64,000 nt of DNA from Octopus vulgaris (taxonomy: Eukaryota): positions 143,220,001-143,284,000 of the forward strand of contig OX597814.1 of NCBI GenBank assembly GCA_951406725.2. The letters are read 5' to 3'. Below are positions 5,266-64,000 of this stretch, one piece after another. The position numbers and the translations under genes are program-made. The stretch's first letter is position 1, and the number at the start of each line of letters is the position of its first letter. Under the pieces are notes generated by a model, which worked only from the letters and a program-made list of their open reading frames with translations, ran no database searches and was not told where the DNA came from.

Positions 5266-5409
5266 TGGATGCAATTTAGTAATTAATGGCTCTAAAGTGC
5301 ATTCTAATTCCCTTGGACTGACCAATACCTTGTGAGAGAATTTGGTAGATGGACTCTATGAAGAAGCCCATTATATGATACCCCATCGTAGCTACATCTC
5401 AAGTGAAGG

Positions 5410-6342
5410 ATAAAGATAAACTGCGGACATGCTGGGGCTCCACCAGGAAAAGGTGTTAGTCGAGCAAATAGATCCCAGGACATACTTCTTTATGTCTAGT
5501 ACTGATTTTATCGGTCTTTTTTGCCGAATCGCTAAGTTACGGGGACGTAAACACACCGAGCCGTGTGTGGGACAAACACACATACACATACACACACGCG
5601 CGCACACACACATAGATACATCTATATATATATATAGAGAGAGAGAAGTCATTTTTCTGTTTCCATCTACCAGATCCACTCACAAGGTTTGGTCGGCCCG
5701 AGGCTACAGTAGAAGACACTCAACCAAGGTGCCAGGTAGTGGGACTTAACCTGGAACCATGTGGTTGAGAAGCTAGTTTCTTATTTTTTTATTTCCCACA
5801 AAGGGCTAAACATAGAGGGGACAAAGAAGGACAGGCAAAGGGATTAAGTCGATTACACCGACCCCAGTGCGTAACTGGTACTTTATTTATCAACCCCGAA
5901 TGATGAAAGGCAAAGTCGACTTCGGCGGAATTTGAACTCAGAACGTAACGGCAGACGAAATACTTATTTCTTTACTACCCGCAAGGGGCTAAACACAGAG
6001 AGGACAAACAAGGACAGACAAACGGATTAATCGATTATATCAACCACAGTGCGTAACTGGTACTTAATTTATCGACCCCGAAGGATGAAAGGCAAAGTCA
6101 ACCTCGGCGGAATTTGAACCCAGAACGTAACGGCAGACAAAATACGGCGACGCATTTCACCCAGCGTGCTAACGTTTTTGCCAGCTCGCCGCCTTGAAGG
6201 CAAAGTCGACCTCAGCGGAATTTGAACTCAGAACGTAGTGGCAGACAAAATACTGCTAAGCTTTTCGCCCGGTGTGCTAACGTTTCTGCCAGCTCGCCGC
6301 CTTATTGGGAAGCAAGTTTCTTACCACACAGCTACGCCTATA
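5410..6342 (-). mobile_element. tRNA-derived SINE family 1 copy, interrupted in its head by a family-2 SINE array
   Basis: Colinear with the intact copy at 8715-9145; head is split at ~5782 and resumes at ~6305. Confidence 0.85.
5783..6304 (-). mobile_element. Tandem array of SINE family 2 (tailed, young)
   Basis: Two tail-bearing units plus a head fragment; flanked by an imperfect 18-bp duplication TTG(A/G)GAAGC(T/A)AGTTTCTT. Confidence 0.85.
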
Positions 6343-6715
6343 CCCATATTTATAAAACCGAAAGATGTGACATCGCCTGCAGCACGTGCAGGCCCGCGCA
6401 CAATAAATATATGTATTAATGAAGAGAATTAAAAGAGTCTACAAAAGCATAGACATTTTTACTTTGTAATATGTCCACTGTGCCCCAGCCGACCCAGACA
6501 AATGAACAGTGGTCGTATTAAAGTGATTACCGTAATGAAAGCTTTAGCAGCAAAACTGCAAGGAATTTTTTTCTCCTTTATGGTTTTGTTTAGTTTTGTA
6601 CAAATTAATTATGTATTCATTTCACCTAACATTAAGGAGTGTTTGTCTGGAAATTTACTGTGTCTGATCTGTTAATATGAACTAAATGTTTATTCGGTTC
6701 TTCTAATTTGAGTGT

Positions 6716-6830
6716 GTATGTATGTATGTATGTATGTATGTATGTATGTATGTATGTATGTATGTATGTATGTATGTATGTATGCATGTATGTATGTATG
6801 TATGTATGTATGTGTGTGTGTATATATGTA
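6716..6830. repeat. (ATGT)n microsatellite
   Basis: Visible directly. Confidence 0.95.
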
Positions 6831-7694
6831 AGCGTATATATATATGTTTATGTTTGCGTATATAGAAATTTATGTCTATATAGATATCTACATCTACATA
6901 CACACATACAAACAGCCTAATATTTATCATACGTAGAGGTACACATATACACCTAATTATTGTGCCATTGCAACCCGATAACATCGAATCAGAAGAAGTA
7001 GCCATTTTATGTAATTATTGTTATGACGAAAGAAATTTAATATGCTAACGATTTAGTTTTGTTTTAATGAGTTAATTAAAGGAGGTACGCAGCGCATGGC
7101 GCTGTTTCCATAGTTTCCTAAACCAAAGCGGAAGTCCTCATTAAACCAGGATGTCGTCGGAATGAAGAGAAGGGACGCTACAAAAGGTACCTGGTGACTA
7201 GTGGTTGGTGTTAATTATGATGAAGCAAGCTGTAAACAAATTGTTATCTAAAAAGAGAACAACGGATATGAACGTGTGTGTTTAAATGTGTGCGCGCAAG
7301 TGTGAGTGTGCGCATGCGTGTGTATCTATATTGAGCTTTTCCATTTGGCTCAGTTTTGTTCTAATTCTGCAAATTGCATAGCGGAATAAGTGTACTTTAC
7401 TGTACTCTACACTTTTTGTATATGTCTTAGGTTTATATTTTCTACGCCTTCTACGGCCAAAGTAGGACAACTGTTGGTTTGGTGATGCCTACTGAGGAAG
7501 AAATATAGGCCTTTGGAGGACCACCCTGCTTGAATTTTCCTTAATCACATGTTACTTCCGAATAAACTATTGATTCTTTAAATCATCTCACTCTTTCATC
7601 CGGAGTCGGTAAACAACAAGGAGACTTGGTAGGCATTTGTATATCTTCTCTCCGTTGAGAAAGTAAATATGTCTGCTTAACTGAGATTTACTCC

Positions 7695-7746
<52 letters not shown>

Positions 7747-7750
7747 CTTA

Positions 7751-7781
<31 letters not shown>

Positions 7782-7976
7782 ACATAAGTATGAATGTGAG
7801 CTTATATCAGGTGTCTGCTTACGTATGTATGCATATATGTATATATAAATATGTAGGTAATATATATATACGTATTATATAAACTATAATAAAATATAAT
7901 ATAATACACATCCATCCATCCATACATACATACATACATTCATACCTACATAGATACATATACATACATACATACA

Positions 7977-8010
<34 letters not shown>

Positions 8011-8381
8011 CATACATACATACATACATACATACATACATACATTCACTATTTTCCTCTCGTTCTGGTCTAACGAACCTCCATGTTTGTTTTCGTTCGG
8101 TTTCCTTGTATGTCTTCACTGTCCTGTTTTTGTTCCATAATTTGACCCTTCGTAAATCCTAAATTTTAGTTTAGAATTTATGGGAGCAACTGTCTTTGAA
8201 GACTTATATTGTCGGTGAATGCTCGAAATGAGGAGTAGATACACAGCCAACAGCTGACGAAGGGTCGTTTTTCTGTGTTTACATGTCCTGTTTTCCATCT
8301 TTCCCCTCGTTGCTTACGTATTAACTCGTTTGTCTTCTTATTTCATTTTTTACGCAGTTGATGACGTCCTGTACCCATATA

Positions 8382-8475
<94 letters not shown>

Positions 8476-8714
8476 ATGATTTGTATATATATATATATAT
8501 TATTTATTATACATATATACATACACACACACACACACACACATTATAGAGAAGTCTTTAAGTGGATACGAAAGGAAGATAGTGGAAAACAGCAGCTCAT
8601 CTTCTGACAATTAGTTGATGTAATGGTTGTCGTTGTACTTCAGGCCAACCTTGATCGTGTAAAATTATGATAAAAGGCTTCAAGACTAGAACTCGTCTAT
8701 ATATTCTTACGCTT

Positions 8715-9145
<431 letters not shown>

Positions 9146-9402
9146 TATATATGCAGGATTGTTTAAAAAAATATTGTCCCATGTGTCTTTTCAATTTTCA
9201 TGATGAACGAATGTGATGTCAAGGAGATTTCGATGCTAACTTTTAGCAAGTCGAACGACGGTTGGAAATTTCTTTGCTGGCTCCTAGTTTGTGGTTGTTG
9301 TTTGTTGGTGAGTCAAAAATGTGTAACAGTCGAACGATGTTTGATAGATGCAGTTCAAACTAGTTAAGTGTTTGCACGTGTTATTCTCTCCCATATATAT
9401 AC

Positions 9403-11130: not shown

Positions 11131-13671
11131 TAAACCGTCTTATCTCTAATAACTTTGATGAGTCCTAAGCGCCACTCCTCAACAACATCAATTGACTGAA
11201 TACTTTTTAAGATCTCTCTTTATAAAAAACTTGCTCTTGTCTGACTGGCAGGATATCCGCAAATTCTCTCGTTTAAATATAAACATACCTTAACCCTCCA
11301 TACACACAGACGAGTATACGTGCACAATTTGTATATGTAAAAAAAAACAAACAAAAAAAAAAACAGACAAAAATGTCTGTCTGCCCCAAATTTGCAGATA
11401 GACATTTGTTGCAAAATTCTCAAACTCGCCACTCCTCAACGAAGACGGATTTCGAATTTCATTGGAGAGATCTGATTAGTGGAGAGTGAATCACAGAAAA
11501 TAACACAAATTGACAAATATGTTCGTCATCCCTAATTTGCGCCATTGCGTTTAAAATATTGAAAGGAAGGGTGATGTTATTCTCTGTACTTTTATTGGTT
11601 TCTGTTATTGGAGTGCGGCCGTACCGAAGCATCGAGTATAGTCGATTACATCGAACCAAGTGTTTATAATGGTTTCAAATTTGACACAAGGTCAGCAATT
11701 TCGGAGTAGGGAATAAATCGATTACATCGACTCCAGTGGTCAACTGGTACTTATTTCATCGAGCCTGAAAGGATGAAATGCAAAATCGGCCTCGACGGAA
11801 TTTGAATGCAGAACGTAAAGAAGAATGAAATGCTGCAAAGTATTTTCCCCGGCGTACTTAACGATTCTTATTTCTTTATTGCCCACAAGGGGCTAAACAT
11901 AGAGGGGACAAACAAGGACATTAAGTCGATTACATCGACCCCAGTGCGTAATTGGTACTTAATTTATCGACCCCGAAAGGATGAAAGGCAAAGTCGACCT
12001 CGGCGGAATTTGAACTTAGAACGTAACGGCAGTCGAAATACCTATTTCTTTATTACCCACAAGGGGCTAAACACAGAGAGAACAAACAAGGACAGACAAA
12101 CGGATTAAGTCAATTATATCGACCCTAGTGCGTAACTGGTACTTATTTAATCAACCCCGAAAGGATGAAAGGCAAAGTCTACCTTGTCGGAATTTGAACT
12201 CAGAACGTAACGGCAGATGAAATACCGCAAAACATTTCGCCCGGCTTGCTAACGTTTCTGCCAGCTCGCCGCCTTATTCCAAGTATGTAGGATATTGATT
12301 TCAAAATTTTGACCCAAGGCCAGCAAGTTCTAAGGAGGGGTAAGCCGGTTACATCAGCCTCCGTGTTCAACTGGTACTTATTTGATCTACCCGAAATGGA
12401 TGAAATGTAAAGCCAACTTCGGTGATATTTGAACTCAGGACGTAAGGACGGACGAACTGCCGCCGAGCATTTTATCGGTCCCGAAGTAATGAAAGGCAAA
12501 GTCAGCCTCGACAGAATTTGAACGCATAACGTAATTAAGGACGAAACGCCGCTAAGCATTTTGCCCGTAGACCAGGGTACACTTATCCTTAATACCCATT
12601 TCTTCTTACACAGACTCAAGTCTTTGGAATACCCTCCCACACACACACACATACACACACTGTTCAAGTTAATTCTTTCTGTTGTTGAATTTCAGAAGAA
12701 ACATTAGCTACATCGATCGCACCAGACTCGATGGGCTCTGAGAAGGCTTTTGGTAAAGTTCCCTCCTCGAGACAAAATCTAATAAAAATTTTTTTATTTA
12801 AATAAAGGAAAAGAAACGCTTCCCCAAATGAAAACAATCATTTATGTATTTAAATTTAATGTTCTTCTTTTGAATTGGAAGTTATTGGTTTTCCGTCGAT
12901 TTCGATGATGATTATTTAGTTGTTCGCTCAAGTGAATCGCCTGTTCTTAGAATCAATGTGTAAGGTAGCTGAGCAATTCAGAGGTACGTGTACCCTTAAC
13001 GTAAGTCTCTGATAGAATCAGCATGACACAAAGTGTGATGAAGCTGTACTTTTGAATTGCAGATACAACTCATCCGACGGGGTTCATCATAGTTTCCGTC
13101 TACCCTCAGTTTCACTCATACGGTATGGGTTGACTTGATATAAAAACAACAAAAAAAAAAACATTAACTCAAAATGTCTCGCATTGAGATGGAACCAGAG
13201 AGTTCGTGATTGCGAAAAAAAGTAACCCCTCCCCAACTCTTTACTAGAATGAAAGGAAATTGGACGCGATTATGATAAGAAGTATCGTTGCTGTTACCTG
13301 CTTCATCTTTTGCAAATCGAAATGTAATGGAATAATTGTGATACTAATTTATTTATGAACGTCTGTAATTTTCTGTTACTTACTTGCCACTAATCCGATG
13401 TCACTAATCCGATATATTATCAAAACCATCTTTGTTGAGGAGCAACAAGTAGGAAAATCTTGCAAAATTATCTGTCTGCAGTTTTGATGGGTTAAGATAT
13501 ATTTTATTTAAACGAGAGAATTTGCGGATATCCTGTTGGTCAGACAAGTACATTTTTAATAGAGATCTTGAAAATATTCTTTCATGAATACGTGACAATT
13601 TAGTGGCTAGACGTTATTGAGGAGTGACACTAAGAATGATTCATCGAAGTTATAAGAGTTGAGGAGGTTTA
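11131..13671. mobile_element. Putative long-TIR (foldback-type) non-autonomous element with nested SINEs
   Basis: 11131-11430 and ~13440-13671 are diverged inverted copies (e.g. GGATATCCGCAAATTCTCTCGTTTAA vs TTAAACGAGAGAATTTGCGGATATCC). Confidence 0.55.
11869..12275 (-). mobile_element. Tandem array of SINE family 2 inside an older related SINE
   Basis: Two tail-bearing units nearly identical to those at 5.8, 26.5 and 63.6 kb. Confidence 0.85.
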
Positions 13672-25900: not shown

Positions 25901-26478
25901 GAAGCCACAAATTTCAGGCCTTGTGCATATTCTAGAAAGGATTTATGAAAACTTAATTATCGTGTAGTTATCTTCTTCTTGTTCTTTCTAACCCTGATCT
26001 CAGCTATTCACATTACATAACAAAATGTGTATTCTTGTTTTCAGGAATATTTACATTTGTCGGTCCACATTTTGGCCTCGAACATGCAGACTATACTCCA
26101 AGGTATTCGTTATTCATAACTTTATTGGCTGGACTCCTGTCCATAGTTGCTGGTAGTATGCACATAGTTGTGGTTAAAAGAACAGTCTGCGAATGAGGAA
26201 ATTTCCATTACCAAAGTGCAAAATCATTTACGTTTTGCCCCTTTAATTTACACAATTAAAACAAAAACTGTAAAGAAAATTAATTTTTCAAATTTTATTT
26301 TGTATTTGAAAATAAACGATTTCATATGTCTATTATGTGTGTCTTTGAGTTTTTACTATTTCTATCTTTATTCAATTAATCAGTCAGATAATTATCGCAC
26401 AAAACTAATGACTTAGACAATGCGGCACCTATCATCAGAATCATCGTTGTCGTCGTCATCAACGTCATATCCATCATC

Positions 26479-26896
26479 AAGGCGTCGAGCTGGCAGTAAC
26501 GTTAGCATGCCGGGCGAAATACTTAGCAGTATTTCGTCTGTCTTCACGTTCCGAGTTCAAATATCCAACGAGGTCGACTTTGCCTTTCATCCTTTCGGGG
26601 TCGATTAAATAAGTACCAGTTACGCACTGGGGTCGATATAATCGATTTAATCCGTTTGTCTGTCCTTGTTTGTTCTCTCTGTGTTTAGCCCCTTGTGGGT
26701 AGTAAAGAAATAGGTATTTCGTCTGTCGTTACGTTCTGAGTTCAAATTCCGCCGAGGTCGACTTTGCCTTTCATCCTTTCGGGGTCGATAAACTAAGTAC
26801 CAGTTACGCACTGGGGTCGATGTAACCGACTTAATCCGTTTGTCTGTCCTTGTTTGTCCCCTCTGTGTTTAGCCCCTTTTAGGCAATAAAGAAATA
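26479..26896 (+). mobile_element. Tandem array of SINE family 2 followed by an older SINE
   Basis: Head AAGGCGTCGAGCTGGC; two units ending ...AAAGAAATA. Confidence 0.88.
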
Positions 26897-27168
26897 AGAA
26901 TCGTTAGTATGCGGAGCAAAATGCTCAGTGGTGTTTCATCTGTCTCCAGGTTCTAAATTCAAATTCTGCCGAGGTCGACTTCACCTTTCATCTTTTCTCA
27001 GTCGAAAATATAAGTTGCGCTCTTTACGTTCTAATTATGCCACTTTTGTCTTTGCCGCTCATCCTTTTGGGGTTGATTAAATAAATACTAGTTGAGAACT
27101 GGAGCCGTTGTAATTGACTGTTTCCCCTATACCACCAAATTTCAGGCCTTTTGCCTATAGTAGAAAGG

Positions 27169-55602: not shown

Positions 55603-55654
<52 letters not shown>

Positions 55655-55783
55655 GATGGGCTTTTTTCAGTTTCCGTCTACCAAATCTATTTACAAGGCT
55701 TCGGTCGGCCGAGAAGATATTTGCCCAAGATGCCACGCAGTGGGACTGAACCCGGAACCATGTGGTTGGTTAGCAAGCTACTT

Positions 55784-57995
55784 TATTTCAAAACATTTGC
55801 CATAAAGGCAGTACACAGATTAAGTTAGCTTTGCGGGCTGGACGAGGACATTAATGAGGTGAATGATAATGAAAGAAAGATGATAAGGATGGGAGAAGAC
55901 AGAAAGCGCCCGCCGACTTTTGCTTCTCTAAAACATTGTTCTTTTTAAAAAAAGATTAACACAAAACGAGGTATTAAACCTCTTACAATTTTTCCAATAA
56001 AACGAGGTATTAATCCTCTTACAATTTTTCAATTTTTGGACTTAAGTCCATTACTAATAATACATATCGTCCTCGAAATAGCTTGTGCCCGCGCCCTCCA
56101 CCATCAACCACGCCTCCCTCAGAACGTAGTCAAGTTCCGAGTTCGCGTCGCCCGGGACCAAGTTATAGTCTTCATTGAGCTCCTTTAGCCCTAGCGTCAC
56201 GTCGAACGCCACGGCCTCCACAGCTACCTGCGGAGGCCATTCGGGGTCCTGTGTGAAGGCTAAAGGTGCTCCCTTGTAGTGCTCTTCCATCACTTTTTCA
56301 ATTTCTCCTCCTCTATAGAAGAGGACCAATACATTCAGTTCTTTCGTTGGCGGCACAGTTTCCGCCAACGGTATTCCTTCTCTTGTCGGTGGCACAACCC
56401 CAACCGACGTAGTTCCGCGACATTCCGGTGCCACACTGACAGCCGGCAACGTCCCGTTTTTCTTCCTCTTTTTCTTTTTTTTTCCCTTTTCAACTGAGGG
56501 AGGGTGCGTCTCCTCCGTGGCTGGAAGATTCGCCCTCCTCTCCTCGTCCCTATTATCCTTTGGTGAGCACCCATTGTTGCTCACCTTCCTCTTTCGGCCT
56601 CTGCTTGAGGAGTCCTCTGCTTTCTCGGCCGTTATCGTTCCCTCTTCTAGAGGGGTTTTACTTAACTGTTCCGGGATCCTATTTTGTTCCCGAGGACAGT
56701 TCTTCTTTATGTGGCCGGACTCCAAGCACCGATGACACTTAGGGGGGCGACCCTCAAGCATCACCGGGTACCTGCACCCGGCCATTTTCAAAAAATCTGG
56801 AAAAACCAGATTGGCTGATTGGGTCCACAGGGTCAAAACTGCTTTCGAGCCAACCCAAGCAGCCGCAGGAAGAACTTTTACATTGAGGAGCTTAGTTTCG
56901 CTGTCACCCAGACCCCGGCGGATAGTGTCCTCTATCCACTCGGGTTCTATGTCGGGTGGCAGTCCGCAGATCCAAGCTTTCATTAATTTCTTTTTTTTGT
57001 AAGTGGGCAGGAATAAGATTTCCTTACCCTCCAAGGGTTCGCTAGCAAATTTGCAAGCCTCTTCAGGGGTGTCAAACAGCAACCACACCGTTCCATATTT
57101 GACACCCCTGGAAATGAATTTAATTGTTGGCAAATACTCCTCCAACTCCTCCTCAATTGCCGTCTTTTCGAATAGGGCGATGGTGTCAAGTGCCTTGGAG
57201 TAGGTTCTCAACACCACCGTCCTATCTTCACGGTCCTTCAACCACTTTTTGGGTGGTATGATTTCCCACTCCAAAACTTTGTTATTTTTCATTGCCATGT
57301 TTTTTAAAAAATATATTCAAATTAGACTCAAAAGCAGGAAGAAAAAAGTTCAAAAGTCTAAATAAATTTGATAGGTTTTTGAAAAAACAAAAAGGAGAAA
57401 GCACAACAGAAGGGAAGAAATTTACGGAAAGTCGCAATAAAGAAAAAACAAAAGGGGGGGGGGTAAATGAAGTTCAAAAGAAAGTTAATAAACAGAAAAA
57501 ACACAGCAAAAATATTCTGCGGTACTCCCGGCCTGGGTTGAACCTGGAACTCCGCAACTGCAACACAACCTCCACAAAAATGGGTCCGAAAGGTAATCCA
57601 ATAGTGGCTTATTTTTATACTTTTCTTGCGAAGTACTCTGACAAGGGAATAAATTCAGCAAACTCAAACACAGCACTGGTTACTGCCAACGGTAATTTTA
57701 ACAGTAACTGTATTGAATCCTGAGTATACGCCCCTCCACTGTTTTTTCTTTTTTTTTTTTTTTTTTCAATGAACACAAAAACGGCAGCCGCCTAGCGCAG
57801 GCGAAATTGTCTCAGAGTTGGACACAACCTACTGAAATAATAATTGGCACGCAATAAATTATGCCCAACTCACAATAAACAAAATCACTTACCTCGACAA
57901 CTTTCCGTTTTTGGTCTTTTTTCTTTAGTTGGACAGAGCTTGTTACTCGCGTCCGCTCTAGCTCAACAAGAAGCAACCGACTAACTGCGCATGTC
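55784..57995 (-). mobile_element. Element A: ORF1-only (non-autonomous) site-specific non-LTR retroelement
   Basis: 17-bp TSD TGGTTAGCAAGCTACTT (55767-55783 and 57996-58012); single ORF; structured 3' UTR; no RT, LTR or TIR. Confidence 0.85.
56054..57298 (-). CDS. ORF1/Gag-like nucleic-acid-binding protein, 414 aa (RRM-like region plus CCHC zinc knuckle; Tx1/L1-group-like)
   Basis: Uninterrupted GC-rich ORF; AAAAAC-ATG-G start; FPDFLKMAGCRYPVMLEGRPPKCHRCLESGHIKKNCP (CX2CX4HX4C at 56696-56737); basic NLS-like tracts; homolog next door. Confidence 0.9.
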   Translation of the reverse strand: MAMKNNKVLEWEIIPPKKWLKDREDRTVVLRTYSKALDTIALFEKTAIEEELEEYLPTIKFISRGVKYGTVWLLFDTPEEACKFASEPLEGKEILFLPTYKKKKLMKAWICGLPPDIEPEWIEDTIRRGLGDSETKLLNVKVLPAAAWVGSKAVLTLWTQSANLVFPDFLKMAGCRYPVMLEGRPPKCHRCLESGHIKKNCPREQNRIPEQLSKTPLEEGTITAEKAEDSSSRGRKRKVSNNGCSPKDNRDEERRANLPATEETHPPSVEKGKKKKKRKKNGTLPAVSVAPECRGTTSVGVVPPTREGIPLAETVPPTKELNVLVLFYRGGEIEKVMEEHYKGAPLAFTQDPEWPPQVAVEAVAFDVTLGLKELNEDYNLVPGDANSELDYVLREAWLMVEGAGTSYFEDDMYY

Positions 57996-58012
57996 TGGTT
58001 AGCAAGCTACTT

Positions 58013-59973
58013 TATTTTATATAATTTGCCACTAGGGCAGCACACAGAGTAGTAGCTACGGGCTGGACAAGGACATTAATGGATGATGGTGGTGGTGGAT
58101 GAAGATGGTGATGGGAGAAGTCGAAAGCGCCCGCCGACTTTCGCTTCTCTAAAACAATGTTTCAATAAATACATTTAATAAAATGTTCAAAAATTGTTCA
58201 ACAATTCTTCTCGTCAGGTCCCCGAAGCAAATTGTCTTGCCGCCTGCAGACAACTCTGCGACGACAAGTCGGGGCCTGCAAAGAGAAAGGTAAAGTCTTT
58301 CTTTTCAAAGGTCTCTGCGACCCTTGACAAAGTATCTTCTGTTACTTTTTCCGCAGCTACCTGCGGAGGCCATAACGGACTCCTTGAGCCGACCGTGTCC
58401 TTACGCTCTCGGTCACCCAAGCCATTCAAGAATCTTTCAACCTCCTCTCCCTTGTGGTAAAGGAGGAGAAGCATCTCCTCTTCACAGGGAGGGACCTCAC
58501 ACTGCTCCGTCGGTGGCACACTTCCCACTGGCGGAGCCTTGTCCGCGGGTGGCACACATCCCACCCGCGGCTCCGTCGGCGACACAGAAACGTCAGTCGT
58601 CCGACCTCTCCTTTTTCTCCTCCTTCTTTTGGGGGAGACTGCTGACCCAGGGGACTCCGTCACCAGACACGGGGGATTGCTATCCCCCTTCGCCCCCTGA
58701 GCGTTCTTTGGCGGGCAACCATTGTTGCTCGCCTTTCTCTTTCTTTTCGTGGAGGCAACCTCCTCCACGACTTCCATCGTCTCCCCCTCCAATGAGGGGG
58801 CGGCGGGCGCCTTTTCCCCTCTCTGCTCCGGGGCACCACTACGGCCTCTGGGACAATTCTTCCTGATATGTCCGGGCTTCAGGCACAGGTGACACTTGGG
58901 GGGGCGACCCTCGAGTATCACCGGGTACCTGTGCCCAGCCATTCTCAGGAAGTCCGGGAATTTCATTTCCCCCACGGCTATCGGTGTCCACAGGGTCAAA
59001 GTTGCCCTCGACCCCTGCCAGGCGACCGCGGGAGCCACCTTCACACTCAGCAGTCTGGGTCCGCTATCCCCCAGGCCTCGCCGGATGGTCTTCTCGATCC
59101 ATTCCGCCTCCGTGCCCGGGGGCAGCCCACACACCCAGGCTCTTTTCACTTTTCTGCCACAATACGAGGGGAGGAACAAAATTTCCTCTCCCTCCAGTGG
59201 CTCGCTAGCAAATCTGCTAGCTTCCTCGGGGGTACCAAACAGCAACCAGACCGTTGCAAATTTACTCCCCCGAGAAATAAATTTTATAGTTGGCAGGTAG
59301 TCCCCCAACTCTTTCTCTATAGTATTCTTGTCGAAGAGGGCAATGGCTCCACGCGACCTAGAATAGGTTCGTAGGACCACCGTCCTCTTCTCAAGACTTT
59401 CAATCCACTGCTTGGGTGGGACGACCTCCCATTCCAAAGCGGTGGTTTCTTTTGTCGCCATGTTTTTTTTGTTTTTTTTTTAAATAAATGTATTTAGAAT
59501 AAAACTAAAAAACGAGAAGAAAAAGAAATCCGAAGAATGTCACAATGAAAAACGGAGAGAGTCAAATAAAGTTGAAAAGAAAGTCAAATAAAGTTAAAAA
59601 GAAAGTCAAAAACACAGCAAAATCCTTTTGGCCATTTGGTACTCCCGGCCTAAATCGAACCAGGATCGCACAACTTCCACAAAAATTGGTAGTTCTTCAC
59701 AGCACCATACAATTTTCACAATTCGAAGACGGATACGCCCCCCCAAATTTTCTCAGCGAGAAAAATATATCTGCCACATGTCGGCAGAATCAGAATTCTG
59801 AATCCAGTAGGACTTCCTGCATGTAAAACATAATTCTCAACAAAAACTCCCACTGGACCCAGAAAACAGAATCTCACCTTACATGGGGCTTCCAAAGTTT
59901 CAATTCAAGACGGCTTCAAAAGCACATCTTCACTGCTTCAGTAGCAAACACAACACTGACTCGCACATGCGCA
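58013..59973 (-). mobile_element. Element B: ORF1-only (non-autonomous) site-specific non-LTR retroelement
   Basis: 15-bp TSD GTTAGCAAGCTACTT (57998-58012 and 59974-59988); same layout as element A. Confidence 0.85.
58214..59461 (-). CDS. ORF1/Gag-like nucleic-acid-binding protein, 415 aa (homolog of 56054-57298)
   Basis: Intact ORF; GRPPKCHLCLKPGHIRKNCP knuckle at 58853-58894; about 68 of the first 100 residues identical to element A protein by manual alignment. Confidence 0.9.
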   Translation of the reverse strand: MATKETTALEWEVVPPKQWIESLEKRTVVLRTYSRSRGAIALFDKNTIEKELGDYLPTIKFISRGSKFATVWLLFGTPEEASRFASEPLEGEEILFLPSYCGRKVKRAWVCGLPPGTEAEWIEKTIRRGLGDSGPRLLSVKVAPAVAWQGSRATLTLWTPIAVGEMKFPDFLRMAGHRYPVILEGRPPKCHLCLKPGHIRKNCPRGRSGAPEQRGEKAPAAPSLEGETMEVVEEVASTKRKRKASNNGCPPKNAQGAKGDSNPPCLVTESPGSAVSPKRRRRKRRGRTTDVSVSPTEPRVGCVPPADKAPPVGSVPPTEQCEVPPCEEEMLLLLYHKGEEVERFLNGLGDRERKDTVGSRSPLWPPQVAAEKVTEDTLSRVAETFEKKDFTFLFAGPDLSSQSCLQAARQFASGT

Positions 59974-62414
59974 GTTAGCAAGCTACTTACCACACAGCCA
60001 CTCCTGCGCCTATGTACATGATTTTGAAAAAACTATTCAGTTTTAAGTCAGCTCTGATAAAGCACTCCTCTGATTAAAGGCCTGCCAACTATGAAGCCCT
60101 GATGTTTCTGTTCAGATTCAGCGCACCTCATTTTACTTTATCCTATCCCTTCCCTTTTTTTAAGCCGGCAAGTTATAACTTCAGAGAAATTATGCTGCTA
60201 TTTCTTACAGATCAATTGATCTCGCAGAGGCTTCCTCATTGGTTTGAGATCGATAGACAAATGCAAATTTCAGTGTTCATATATCTCCTAAATCATTTTG
60301 ACGATCATCAAATTCTCTCGTCCGTTCTAATCCTTTCCTTATCTGAACTGATAACGACTAACATCATTAACATTTAAATCATTTGTCTTGTAGTCTTCAT
60401 TATAGAAGCATATGATAAATGTTTCTTAAGTGTCTATTGAATATGCTATGCTCGAATTAGCAACAGTTACCATGTCTATTATGAAACAAACTATCCACGC
60501 CTTCACTACATTGCCGATTCTTAATTTAAATTAATCAAAACTTTGGTTGCGTAGACGCATTTCAAAGTTATTTTTCATTTTGATTTTGAGTTGTCTCCCT
60601 TGCCATTGTTTGGTTCATTTAGTAACCTCCTACACGATACAGTTTGTAATCTTTATCAGTGAAGGTTATTGTGCTCCTCACATTCAGTGTGTTTTCACAG
60701 ATACTTCACTAGATTCCGTTAAAGTATAGATTTTCGCAGTAAGCAACGTTTGCAGAAATTTATAAACCACATTAGAAAAGCTTATGAACTTGAGAAACAT
60801 GAAATAAAAACTGACACGGATCTCTCCCCAAGGATTATTGGAAAATACTACGTAACACAATAACAAATTTAAAATGTAGAAAATAAACCTTTTAACTGAG
60901 AAGGTTGAACATTGGGACATGAAATGGAAAACATAGACACTGTAGGGAATAAATCCCGTTATAATCCTGGAATGAAGTGCCAACAAATTTAGGAAGGGAA
61001 CTCTATTCCATTCAAAAGCAAGTAATTACTATAAATTAGCGATTGCACAGAAGACAGAAAGCGTTATCAGACAATAGATGTAAACGTAAAACAAAAATGG
61101 AGTCTGAAAAATATTTGCTGCGTCATTACTAAGTGTAAAGGAAAAGATCCATGAAATAGTTTCTCAGTGAAGAGATGTTGTAGCTAGCCAAAAGCTATCG
61201 TAAGAATAAATTCACAACAACCACATCAGACAGACATAACAGAATCAACAGATTAAAAGAATATACTGTAGTTAATGGCATTATAATAATCACACTTTCC
61301 CTCTAAAATGTCTCAAAATTTCACCCGGGTCCTATGTGCGAAGTTGGGCTTTCCATAAACTGTTTTAGTGCACTAAAAATGTTTTATCCAGAATATACAC
61401 TGCTGAAACTGAGATGCGTCTTGTATGCCCGTGCGACTCTCATGTCGTCGAATACGGTAGGTAGAAGCAAAAAGAAAGGAAAACACAATTGATAAAATAT
61501 TGTTTAGGGAGAATAGGAAAAATAGGAATGCAAAAGTGCTCTGCTGAGGCAGTCAGTGACCCATTTGAGAATACCAATGCGGTTTTCAAATATTGCTAGA
61601 AAAAGGAAACCCCTAATCATAACCGATTAAGCTTTTATAAATCCAATAACGAGATGCAGTCCTATCTTTATAACGATTTTCTTTGGACCTAAAGGGTATG
61701 TAATAAACCGCATGGTTAGATCAAATTATGGTAGAGCTAGAATTCGCGATTAAAGAACCATGGATCTAGAATTCATGGGTTAGAGATTATCACTATATTC
61801 AGGATAATGGAAAATTTTAAGATCTTAGAGTTTAAAAGTTAACTGGATAGTCAAAAATGGACGAAAAGGAGAAGAAAGAAGCATCGTTTTTTTGTTTTCT
61901 CTTGTTTATTTTTTCTTTGCAATATTGCCATTATGATGGCCAAAGGGTTGGTTAAAAGATCAATAAAATCCAATCACAAAGTGAACCATACATTTTAGGT
62001 GTGAATGCGTATATCTCTTCTTTTCCTTCTGTCTGTTAGTCTGCTCTTCTCTCTCTCTCCCTCTCTCTCTCTCTCTCTCCCTCTCTCTCTCCCTCTCTCT
62101 CTCTCTCTCTGTTTGTTTGTCACTCACTCCTGTATGTATCGATGGTTTGTATGTATATCATTATTCAATTTTATTTCAAGATTTCTAGCCTATAGAGAAA
62201 GAGCCGATTTTTAACCTAGATCCCAGACTCCTTCATTGAAATTTCAACATCAGCAGACTTGTATGTTTTGTTTGTGTATGTATTTTTATGTTTTGTTTGT
62301 GTATGACATTCTCATATATACCTAAATGATAAAATTCTGGAAAGTTTTACAGACTTTTACAGTTCCACTGATGGCGTGAATCAGTAGTCTTCGAATCAGC
62401 TTTCGCCTTTCCCC

Positions 62415-63545: not shown

Positions 63546-64000
63546 TATTTCTTTACTACCCACAAGGGGCTAAACACAGGGAGGACAAACAAGGGCCGAC
63601 AAACGGATTAAGTCGATTATATCGACCCCAGTACGTAACTGGTACTTATTTAATCGACCCCGAAAGGATGAAAGGCAAATTCGACCTCGGTGGAATTTGA
63701 ACTCAGAACGTAACCGTAGACGAAATACCTATTTCTTTACTACCCACAAGGGGATAAACACAGAGAGGACAAACAAGGACAGACAGACGGATTAAGTCGA
63801 TTACATCGACCCCAGTGCGTAACTGGTACTTATTTAATCGACCCCGAAAGGATGAAAGGCAAAGTCGACCTCGGCGGAATTTGAACTCAGAACGTAGCGA
63901 CAGACGAAATACGGCTACACATTTCGCCCGGCGTGCTAACGTTTCTGCCAGCTCGCCGCCTTTTGTGACCGTAGACGAAATACCTATTTCTTTATTACCC
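63546..64000 (-). mobile_element. Tandem array of SINE family 2 (runs off the window end)
   Basis: Two tail-bearing units plus head, and the start of a third tail at ~63984. Confidence 0.88.

Follow-up and report, generated by a model that had tools for sequence, protein, structure and literature searches.

A family-2 SINE array inside a family-1 SINE of Octopus vulgaris, at a base shared with an L1-like LINE and two ORF1-only elements

Target-specific LINEs are natural site-directed integration systems, and the shares of the endonuclease and of pairing by the RNA end in their targeting are still being studied element by element. The closest published parallel to the present case comes from crocodilians, in which fixed spots of a Mariner transposon are targeted by both Tx1-Mar LINEs and SINEU SINEs (Kojima 2015, PMC4494074). 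According to the sections of that paper used here, a LINE group and the SINEs that it presumably mobilises favour fixed spots in another transposon family, tandem SINE copies sandwich the target duplication, and the SINEU families differ in strictness (90%, 23%, and 13%). The same sections name further targets of the Tx1 clade, i.e. Tx1D for Tx1L, U2 snRNA genes for Keno, and microsatellites for Kibi and Koshi, and state that co-transcription with the target strengthens specific integration of the R1/R2-type rDNA elements (PMC4494074, citing Eickbush 2000 and Fujimoto 2004).

Target-specific jumping is already known in crocodilians and frogs, and the case described here, from a window of 64,000 nucleotides of the Octopus vulgaris genome (contig OX597814.1, positions 143,220,001 to 143,284,000), is a variant of it. 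As far as the Tx1-Mar/SINEU system is set out in the sections mentioned above, the two cases have in common that tandem SINEs surround a target duplication, that the strictness of the SINE varies, and that independence of the insertions is argued from 5'-truncated copies. They differ in that insertion here is into the head of an abundant SINE and not into a Mariner DNA transposon. Unlike SINEU, the SINE of our case (family 2) has two further fixed bases, in the head of its own family, to which it homes and so builds arrays, and its tail of about 65 nt is visibly LINE-derived. Unlike in the crocodilian case, the host is an invertebrate, with an octopus-like repeat content, and the LINE is a candidate member of the Tx1 clade. 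With Tx1L, Keno, Kibi, and Koshi, as described in those sections, the LINE shares an APE-type endonuclease and insertion at one sequence of a repeated target, although their targets differ from the family-1 head. The R1/R2-type elements provide a parallel in the idea that nucleotides at the 3' end of the RNA that are derived from the target, or match it, would help to place the start of the cDNA.

What is new here is the SINE-head target, the homing of a SINE into its own family, the ORF1-only elements that stack at the site, and the pattern in which the site variant goes with the tail. The endonuclease of R2 is restriction-like. In the present case, a role of pairing is suggested by sequence statistics. 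Non-autonomous L1 derivatives that contain only ORF1, also named 'half-L1', were reportedly described by Bao and Jurka in 2010 (as cited in PMC4494074); the elements called A and B below similarly keep an ORF1-like frame and a LINE-type tail without a reverse transcriptase, but they are site-specific and stacking, and their ORF1 is distant from that of the autonomous copy examined (29% identity).

In the literature searched, cephalopods were not among the hosts for which LINEs or SINEs targeting a SINE head are described. A 2026 paper on the repeats of Octopus vulgaris counts L1-Tx1 among the recently active families (PMC13282606), and a term search of its text gave 0 occurrences of the words 'target' and 'nested'.

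The split family-1 SINE and elements A and B

A family-1 SINE on the minus strand of the window runs from 6345 to 6305 and then again from 5783 to 5400, and its two halves are separated by a 524-nt family-2 array (6303 to 5780), in agreement with the preliminary description, which had reported a family-1 SINE at 5.4–6.3 kb interrupted by such an array. By blastn of the rejoined copy, the 5' head piece, which ends with the upstream duplication copy, was located at 6305–6345 (query 1–46 = 6350–6305), and the remainder, which takes in what is left of the head, an internal microsatellite, and the 3' portion, at 5400–5783 (query 28–411 = 5783–5400, 99.5%). The insert is composed of three family-2 pieces, all on the minus strand. 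A partial unit at 6303 to 6197 (reference 2–108; 87.9% to the reference unit, and seen as a period-108 repeat) is followed by a full unit at 6196 to 5963 (reference 1–234; blastn and repeat analysis) and by a unit that starts from reference position 52 at 5962 to 5780 (reference 52–234, 88%), whose AAATAAG-type tail, termed 'tail b', abuts family 1. Tandem Repeats Finder reported periods of 182 and 108 for this insert, and the designation 'array' is correct.

The repeat search (family D7) found a direct repeat of 19 nt with 89% identity and 2 mismatches, the downstream copy lying at 5765–5783 and the upstream copy at 6305–6323, both on the minus strand; the preliminary description had given the same number of mismatches and a length of 18 bp (5765–5782 and 6305–6322). 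Both copies correspond to family-1 positions 29–47 in a 185-position head profile built from 65 sampled copies, and the nhmmer match of the family-1 remainder at window 5783 begins at profile position 29. Because the same family-1 stretch is found on either side of the insert, the repeat is a diverged target-site duplication and not a chance repeat. TAAG forms both the final four letters of the family-2 tail and the opening four of the duplication; the exact nick can therefore not be placed within those four bases.

We take the family-2 SINE head to resemble box A and box B motifs. A search for a tRNA origin of the SINE heads gave 0 tRNAs in the window with ARAGORN, and no tRNA match in an Rfam E-value scan of 5300–9300. 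Sub-threshold Rfam matches to mir-466 and mir-297 were obtained at window 6715–6830 and 8450–8545, over a (TGTA)29 microsatellite and similar tracts, and these microRNA matches were rejected as low-complexity artefacts.

At 55.8–60.0 kb, two tandem elements, A and B, of about 2 kb each, interrupt a second family-1 copy at the same place. Element A (58010–59973, minus strand) is LINE-like with only an ORF1 (58214–59461, 415 aa, containing a CCHC knuckle), and element B (55781–57996, minus strand), which is stacked behind A, is likewise ORF1-only (56054–57298, 414 aa). Upstream of A lies a family-1 head piece recognized by its sequence (59974–60011, minus strand; pattern match at 59977–59988), and downstream of B lies the family-1 remainder (55609–55783, minus strand; nhmmer profile 30–184). 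Since the A and B proteins are just 50% identical, the two are different families at one site and not a tandem duplication. Each of them has one intact ORF1-like frame and a LINE-type tail; a domain search of their ORFs gave no match to a reverse transcriptase family, and the zf-CCHC scores of 14.9 bits for A and 16.7 bits for B indicate a weak knuckle.

The tails of A and B are A-rich, the last three letters overlap the target, and a 15–16-nt copy of the target lies between the two elements. Both end at family-1 profile 29/30 to 32/33, in the same orientation as at the family-2 array. The family-1 remainder begins at profile 29 after the array and at profile 30 after B (window 5783 vs 55783), which is in keeping with the earlier statement that the junction of the array lies within 1 nt of that used by A and B. 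As this 1-nt offset falls inside the overlap of tail and target (TAAG or AAG), the junctions of the array and of A/B are indistinguishable.

Recurrence of the junction in the genome

The 2.8-Gb genome was searched with an exact pattern of 10 tail letters, 0–30 free letters, and a 10-letter family-1 anchor, which covers 31 positions of family 1. The family-2/family-1 pattern gave 323 matches, compared with 1 for the reversed-pattern control. Among the first 100 junctions listed of these 323, 92 were at one base, the one found in the window, and the 15-nt target stretch differed among the listed rows. A flank-blind sample was obtained with a pattern of 18 exact tail-b letters and then 27 free letters (10,487 genome matches vs 1 for the control), and the first 100 listed rows were classified by eye. 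Two of these 100 were at the same family-1 base and 1 more was shifted by 3 nt, while the chance expectation at that base is 0.008 per 100 (P(≥2) = 3e-5). The histogram of family-2 junctions along family 1 that the preliminary description had proposed was made over these 31 positions and has the kind of sharp peak that was said there to support targeting; in the flank-blind sample of 100, which is too small for a full histogram, the excess is 2–3 against 0.008.

A single offset of the family-2 or family-3 head accounted for 38 of the 100 flank-blind rows (35 once three segmental duplicates are left out). Near the head end, a second position in family 1 took 6 rows, which come from 3 independent loci, one of which occurs four times; 1 row was elsewhere in family 1, 1–2 were at family-2 offset 51, and the rest were dispersed. 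The family-1 base is not the main target of tail-b family 2 and takes about 2–3% of it; a rough scaling, as distinct from a count, would give 1,000–2,000 family-2 events at that base genome-wide.

An arbitrary sample of 100 segments, each 10 kb long and taken at fixed coordinates from 20 contigs, together with the window (1.064 Mb in total), contained 97 family-2 tails and 232 family-1 head matches, and the density of 171 family-1 heads per 1.064 Mb corresponds to about 450,000 genome-wide. In this sample the array of the window was the only family-2 tail joined to family 1 at the site. The window's own two family-1 heads that start near the site, at the array and at the A/B stack, have such a tail upstream, and none was found in the sample outside the window. 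With no such junction outside the window in 1 Mb, the site is rarely occupied per copy.

Nineteen loci with the same 3' junction were examined, a set biased towards that junction because the junction itself was the query. In 15 of the 19, the family-2 unit was immediately preceded by a family-1 5' head (in L010 as a fragment only). Three loci (L003, L013, and L027) had no family-1 head upstream, and L019 had an earlier family-2 tail and a short family-1 stretch there, which indicates two family-2 insertions stacked at the site. The outer flanks were unique, and family 2 was present in full length or started at reference position ~10, 13, 17, 36, or 70. The duplications were ~3–20 nt long with locus-specific variants, some of them present in both copies (e.g. 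L006, where a pair of 19 nt is perfect, and L016, where the pair has 20 nt). The differing 5' junctions and duplications show that these were independent events at the homologous position, as had been proposed, and exclude one ancestral composite.

The pattern for the A/B-type (LINE-type) tail gave 846 exact genome matches, compared with 0 for the reversed-pattern control. Many different element families were represented among 30 fetched junction loci of this type, and two of the loci (L172 and L173) had a long open frame upstream. All flank-blind B copies (20/20) ended at the family-1 base. Among 19 fetched loci, a family-1 head was directly 5' of full-length B in 17, an A-type element tail was 5' of B in 1, and 1 gave no match.

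The A-then-B stack of the window (55781–59973) recurs at at least two other loci with the same order and a distance of ~2.2 kb, namely L179/L180 (C1:29.277–29.279 Mb) and L137/L156 (C2:106.491–106.494 Mb). This suggests that the stack could move as one unit, via a read-through transcript ending in the tail of B, or spread with its host SINE. The nucleotide A was found at profile position 42 in 15 of 20 family-1 flanks of B (L131–L150), compared with 8 of 72 comparable sampled heads, meaning either that B prefers a young family-1 subfamily or that composites have spread. With the rarer flank variant that they share and the recurring stack, the B copies may not all be independent.

The LINE at the site and the role of the tail

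A full LINE copy, L200, has an ORF1 of 467 aa and an ORF2 of 1133 aa. The latter contains the domains Exo_endo_phos (E 5e-12), RVT_1 (E 1e-27), and zf-RVT (E 1e-8), and is colinear with human L1 ORF2p over residues 6–870 (E 8e-67). The zf-CCHC score of its ORF1 was 20.7 bits (cut-off 20.8), Pfam reported no RRM in the ORF1 of L200, A, or B, and the ORF1 of B is 29% identical to that of L200 (E 2e-24). The flanks of L200 match family-1 profile positions 6–45 and 30–184, i.e. there is a 16-nt duplication at the same site. We presume that the LINE behind the site is of the Tx1 type; a protein homology search with its protein gave 14 relatives, which were unnamed or uninformative.

A LINE query taken from the 3' UTR and stopping 72 nt before the element end gave 390 candidates, of which 40 were scored and 30 fetched. 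All 30 of these flank-blind copies ended at the family-1 base; the flank was a family-1 head in 27, and in the other 3 a family-1 stretch of 12–16 nt led into the 5' end of a further stacked element. Identity over 246 nt was 100% in at least 33 of the 40 copies scored. Since the LINE copies are identical but their family-1 flanks locus-specific, they are recent, independent insertions into older copies. Family 2 (tail b) shares the target preference of the LINE, the feature by which SINEU and Tx1-Mar are linked, with 2–3 flank-blind copies per 100 at the base where 0.008 are expected; the preference is weak beside the 30 of 30 of the LINE, and the site variant used differs.

The last ~65 nt of the LINE align with those of family 2 (in an alignment of five family-2 tails), and A and B share their final ~40 nt with the LINE tail. 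The ends of the LINE, A, B, and family 2 hence align, which bears out the earlier statement that the array is an event by an element with the shared tail. A hairpin of 4 bp with a 5-nt loop is predicted in the shared tail, and both-side changes at 2 of the 4 pairs lend it slight support.

Among 171 sampled family-1 heads, TAAG was followed by T in 62 and by A in 52. The T variant was used by the LINE in 30 of 30 cases (p = 1e-8) and by B in 20 of 20 (p = 5e-6, subject to the possible non-independence of the B copies), T making up 54% of the background. The A variant was used at 85 of the 92 family-2 junctions, compared with 22% of the heads with the same anchor (p = 4e-48). The common site-specific endonuclease suggested in the preliminary description is upheld as regards the machinery, in that a LINE with APE and reverse transcriptase ends at the site in 30 of 30 copies, but not as regards the endonuclease acting alone, as the LINE and family 2 use opposite site variants.

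The tails of family 2 are of two types, and a subfamily marker immediately upstream goes with the type. The final letters of tail a are GGTA(T), also where it abuts 15 unrelated flanks, so that these letters belong to the element. When tail flanks were scored ungapped with a shuffle control, tail a was found to join its own family's head where GGTA(T) occurs, 31 of 33 such junctions being at one offset (shuffled controls 0). For tail b, all 10 of 10 junctions with the head of its own family were at one offset. Both family-1 spots used by tail b open with similar letters, and ~60% of the dispersed tail-b flanks start with AA (counted by eye). In each of the three tail classes, the last nucleotides of the tail are the first nucleotides of the preferred target. 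Because the target variant tracks the element type, tail–target pairing probably adds to the endonuclease, and these sequence comparisons suggest that pairing of the last nucleotides of the RNA probably contributes to the choice of site.

We think it probable, judging from the sequences, that the family-2 array was placed at the family-1 base by the machinery of the LINE via target-primed reverse transcription. The ORF2 protein would bind RNAs ending in the 3' tail of the LINE, which consists of a small hairpin and, after it, an A-rich end; this tail is common to the LINE itself, A, B, and family 2. The endonuclease would nick the bottom strand beside TAAG in the family-1 head, and base pairing of the nicked strand with the last 3–6 nt of the RNA would prime cDNA synthesis and probably decide which site variant or look-alike site is used. 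The second strand would be cut at a variable distance downstream, giving duplications of ~3–20 nt for family 2 and 12–16 nt for the LINE, A, and B. As the duplication recreates the site, elements can stack there, as A and B do. The inner structure of the array would result from the homing of family 2 to positions in its own family's head. The other fixed targets of family 2 have unlike flanks, and one endonuclease specificity can therefore not account for all of them. The opposite preference for site variants is equally compatible with mobilisation of family 2 by a sister LINE whose endonuclease differs.

Several other explanations of the shared junction were weighed. By chance or through a loose A-rich preference, the abundant family 1 might simply catch some family-2 copies at this base, and given ~450,000 family-1 heads and family-2 tails in the tens of thousands, a few coincidences would be expected at any base. 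This explanation was rejected, and its probability appears negligible, in view of the 92 of the first 100 listed junctions at one base of a 31-nt interval, the 2–3 flank-blind tails per 100 where 0.008 are expected, and reversed-pattern controls with 0–1 matches. The junction could also go back to one event if a single family-1 copy already carrying family 2 had been amplified as a composite. Segmental duplicates do exist, one locus being present four times in the tail-b sample, and for part of the B copies, with their uniform 5' junctions, shared flank variant, and recurring A-B stack, composite spread remains plausible. For family 2 and the LINE we rejected it as very improbable, as the family-2 starts, the 5' junctions, the duplications (~3–20 nt), and the family-1 flanks differ among the 19 loci, the 15-nt target stretch varies among the listed junctions, and identical LINEs sit in diverged family-1 copies. 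An RNA-level chimera, in which reverse transcriptase changed templates from family-1 to family-2 RNA at a short overlap and no resident copy received an insertion, would suit the many junctions of family 2 with its own head that have no visible upstream target half (as at 11.7–12.5 kb and 26.5–26.9 kb). Template switching or homology-guided 5' joining could explain those arrays, and the chimera may apply to arrays inside family 2. At the locus of the window, both family-1 halves are present with a 19-nt overlap, as they are at 15 of the 19 loci (L010 with a fragment; not at L003, L013, and L027; L019 being the stacked pair), and the chimera was rejected there as improbable.

It may also be that recognition of DNA by the protein sets the nick on its own, that sister LINEs with other specificities move the family-2 subfamilies, and that the overlaps of tail and target are by-products. 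The target choice of the Tx1 clade is attributed mainly to the endonuclease in the sections of PMC4494074 used here; moreover, the many element families with ends at the family-1 site imply several LINE lineages, and the tail type correlates with the family-2 subfamily marker upstream of the tail. The agreement between the tail end and the start of the preferred target in each of the three tail classes, together with the AA that opens ~60% of the dispersed tail-b flanks (by eye), argues against the endonuclease alone, which we regard as a doubtful explanation.

Within the mechanism based on the LINE machinery, we tentatively put forward that the last 3–6 nucleotides of the tail may serve as an exchangeable address that steers one L1-like machinery to different fixed bases. 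The LINE, A, and B would then be directed to the T variant of the family-1 site, tail b to the A variant, to the second spot in family 1, and to offset 18 in the head of its own family, and tail a to offset 51 in that head. If this is true, a SINE homes into itself and into a rival SINE, builds arrays, and splits the head of its target. The genome holds thousands of natural events with related tails and several fixed sites, contributed by a LINE family that is very young, at least two ORF1-only families, and a SINE whose tails are of two types, so that the idea of an address in the tail is testable on sequences already at hand. For annotation, the 183-nt family-2 arrays and the SINE-in-SINE nests would be homing products and not separate repeat families. 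Since the insertion separates two promoter-like motifs of the target SINE head, each insertion would be expected to silence the family-1 copy that receives it.

Family-2 arrays and further fixed junctions

In each of the window's four family-2 arrays, a unit starting at reference 52 comes after a full unit. In the array at 63.5–64.0 kb, a 17-nt family-2 stretch (reference ~51–67) with a rare variant is present on both sides of the full unit, which fits a target duplication of family 2 inserted into family 2; the bracketing copies lie at window 63710–63745 and 63965–64000, and the array runs off the window end. In the arrays at 11713–12534 and 26478–26898, the last unit joins the related SINE family 3 at head offset 17–18. 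No upstream half of the target head was visible in these two arrays, nor in most arrays. Homology between insert and target may let the 5' end join in register, or a template switch may have occurred.

For the array in the family-1 SINE, a 57-nt duplication (reference 52–108) was considered as proof that the middle unit had inserted into the outer one. The three copies of this stretch differ about equally (by eye), and the duplication was therefore rejected as proof of such an origin of the partial unit at 6197–6303.

At the second fixed junction of tail b in family 1, near the head end, the flank begins with AAACTGAAAG. Examples are found at C1:514539, C1:21176716, C1:22808026, and in L018, and this junction is about as frequent as the site described above (3 independent loci among the 100 listed flank-blind rows). 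Four identical pairs of family-2 junctions, ~216 nt apart, were observed at C1:21.18, 22.15, 22.29, and 22.30 Mb, and represent a segment present four times. At C9:2.664–2.676 Mb (L213–L215), three identical full-length LINEs, 5.4 kb apart, are arranged head-to-tail at one family-1 site.
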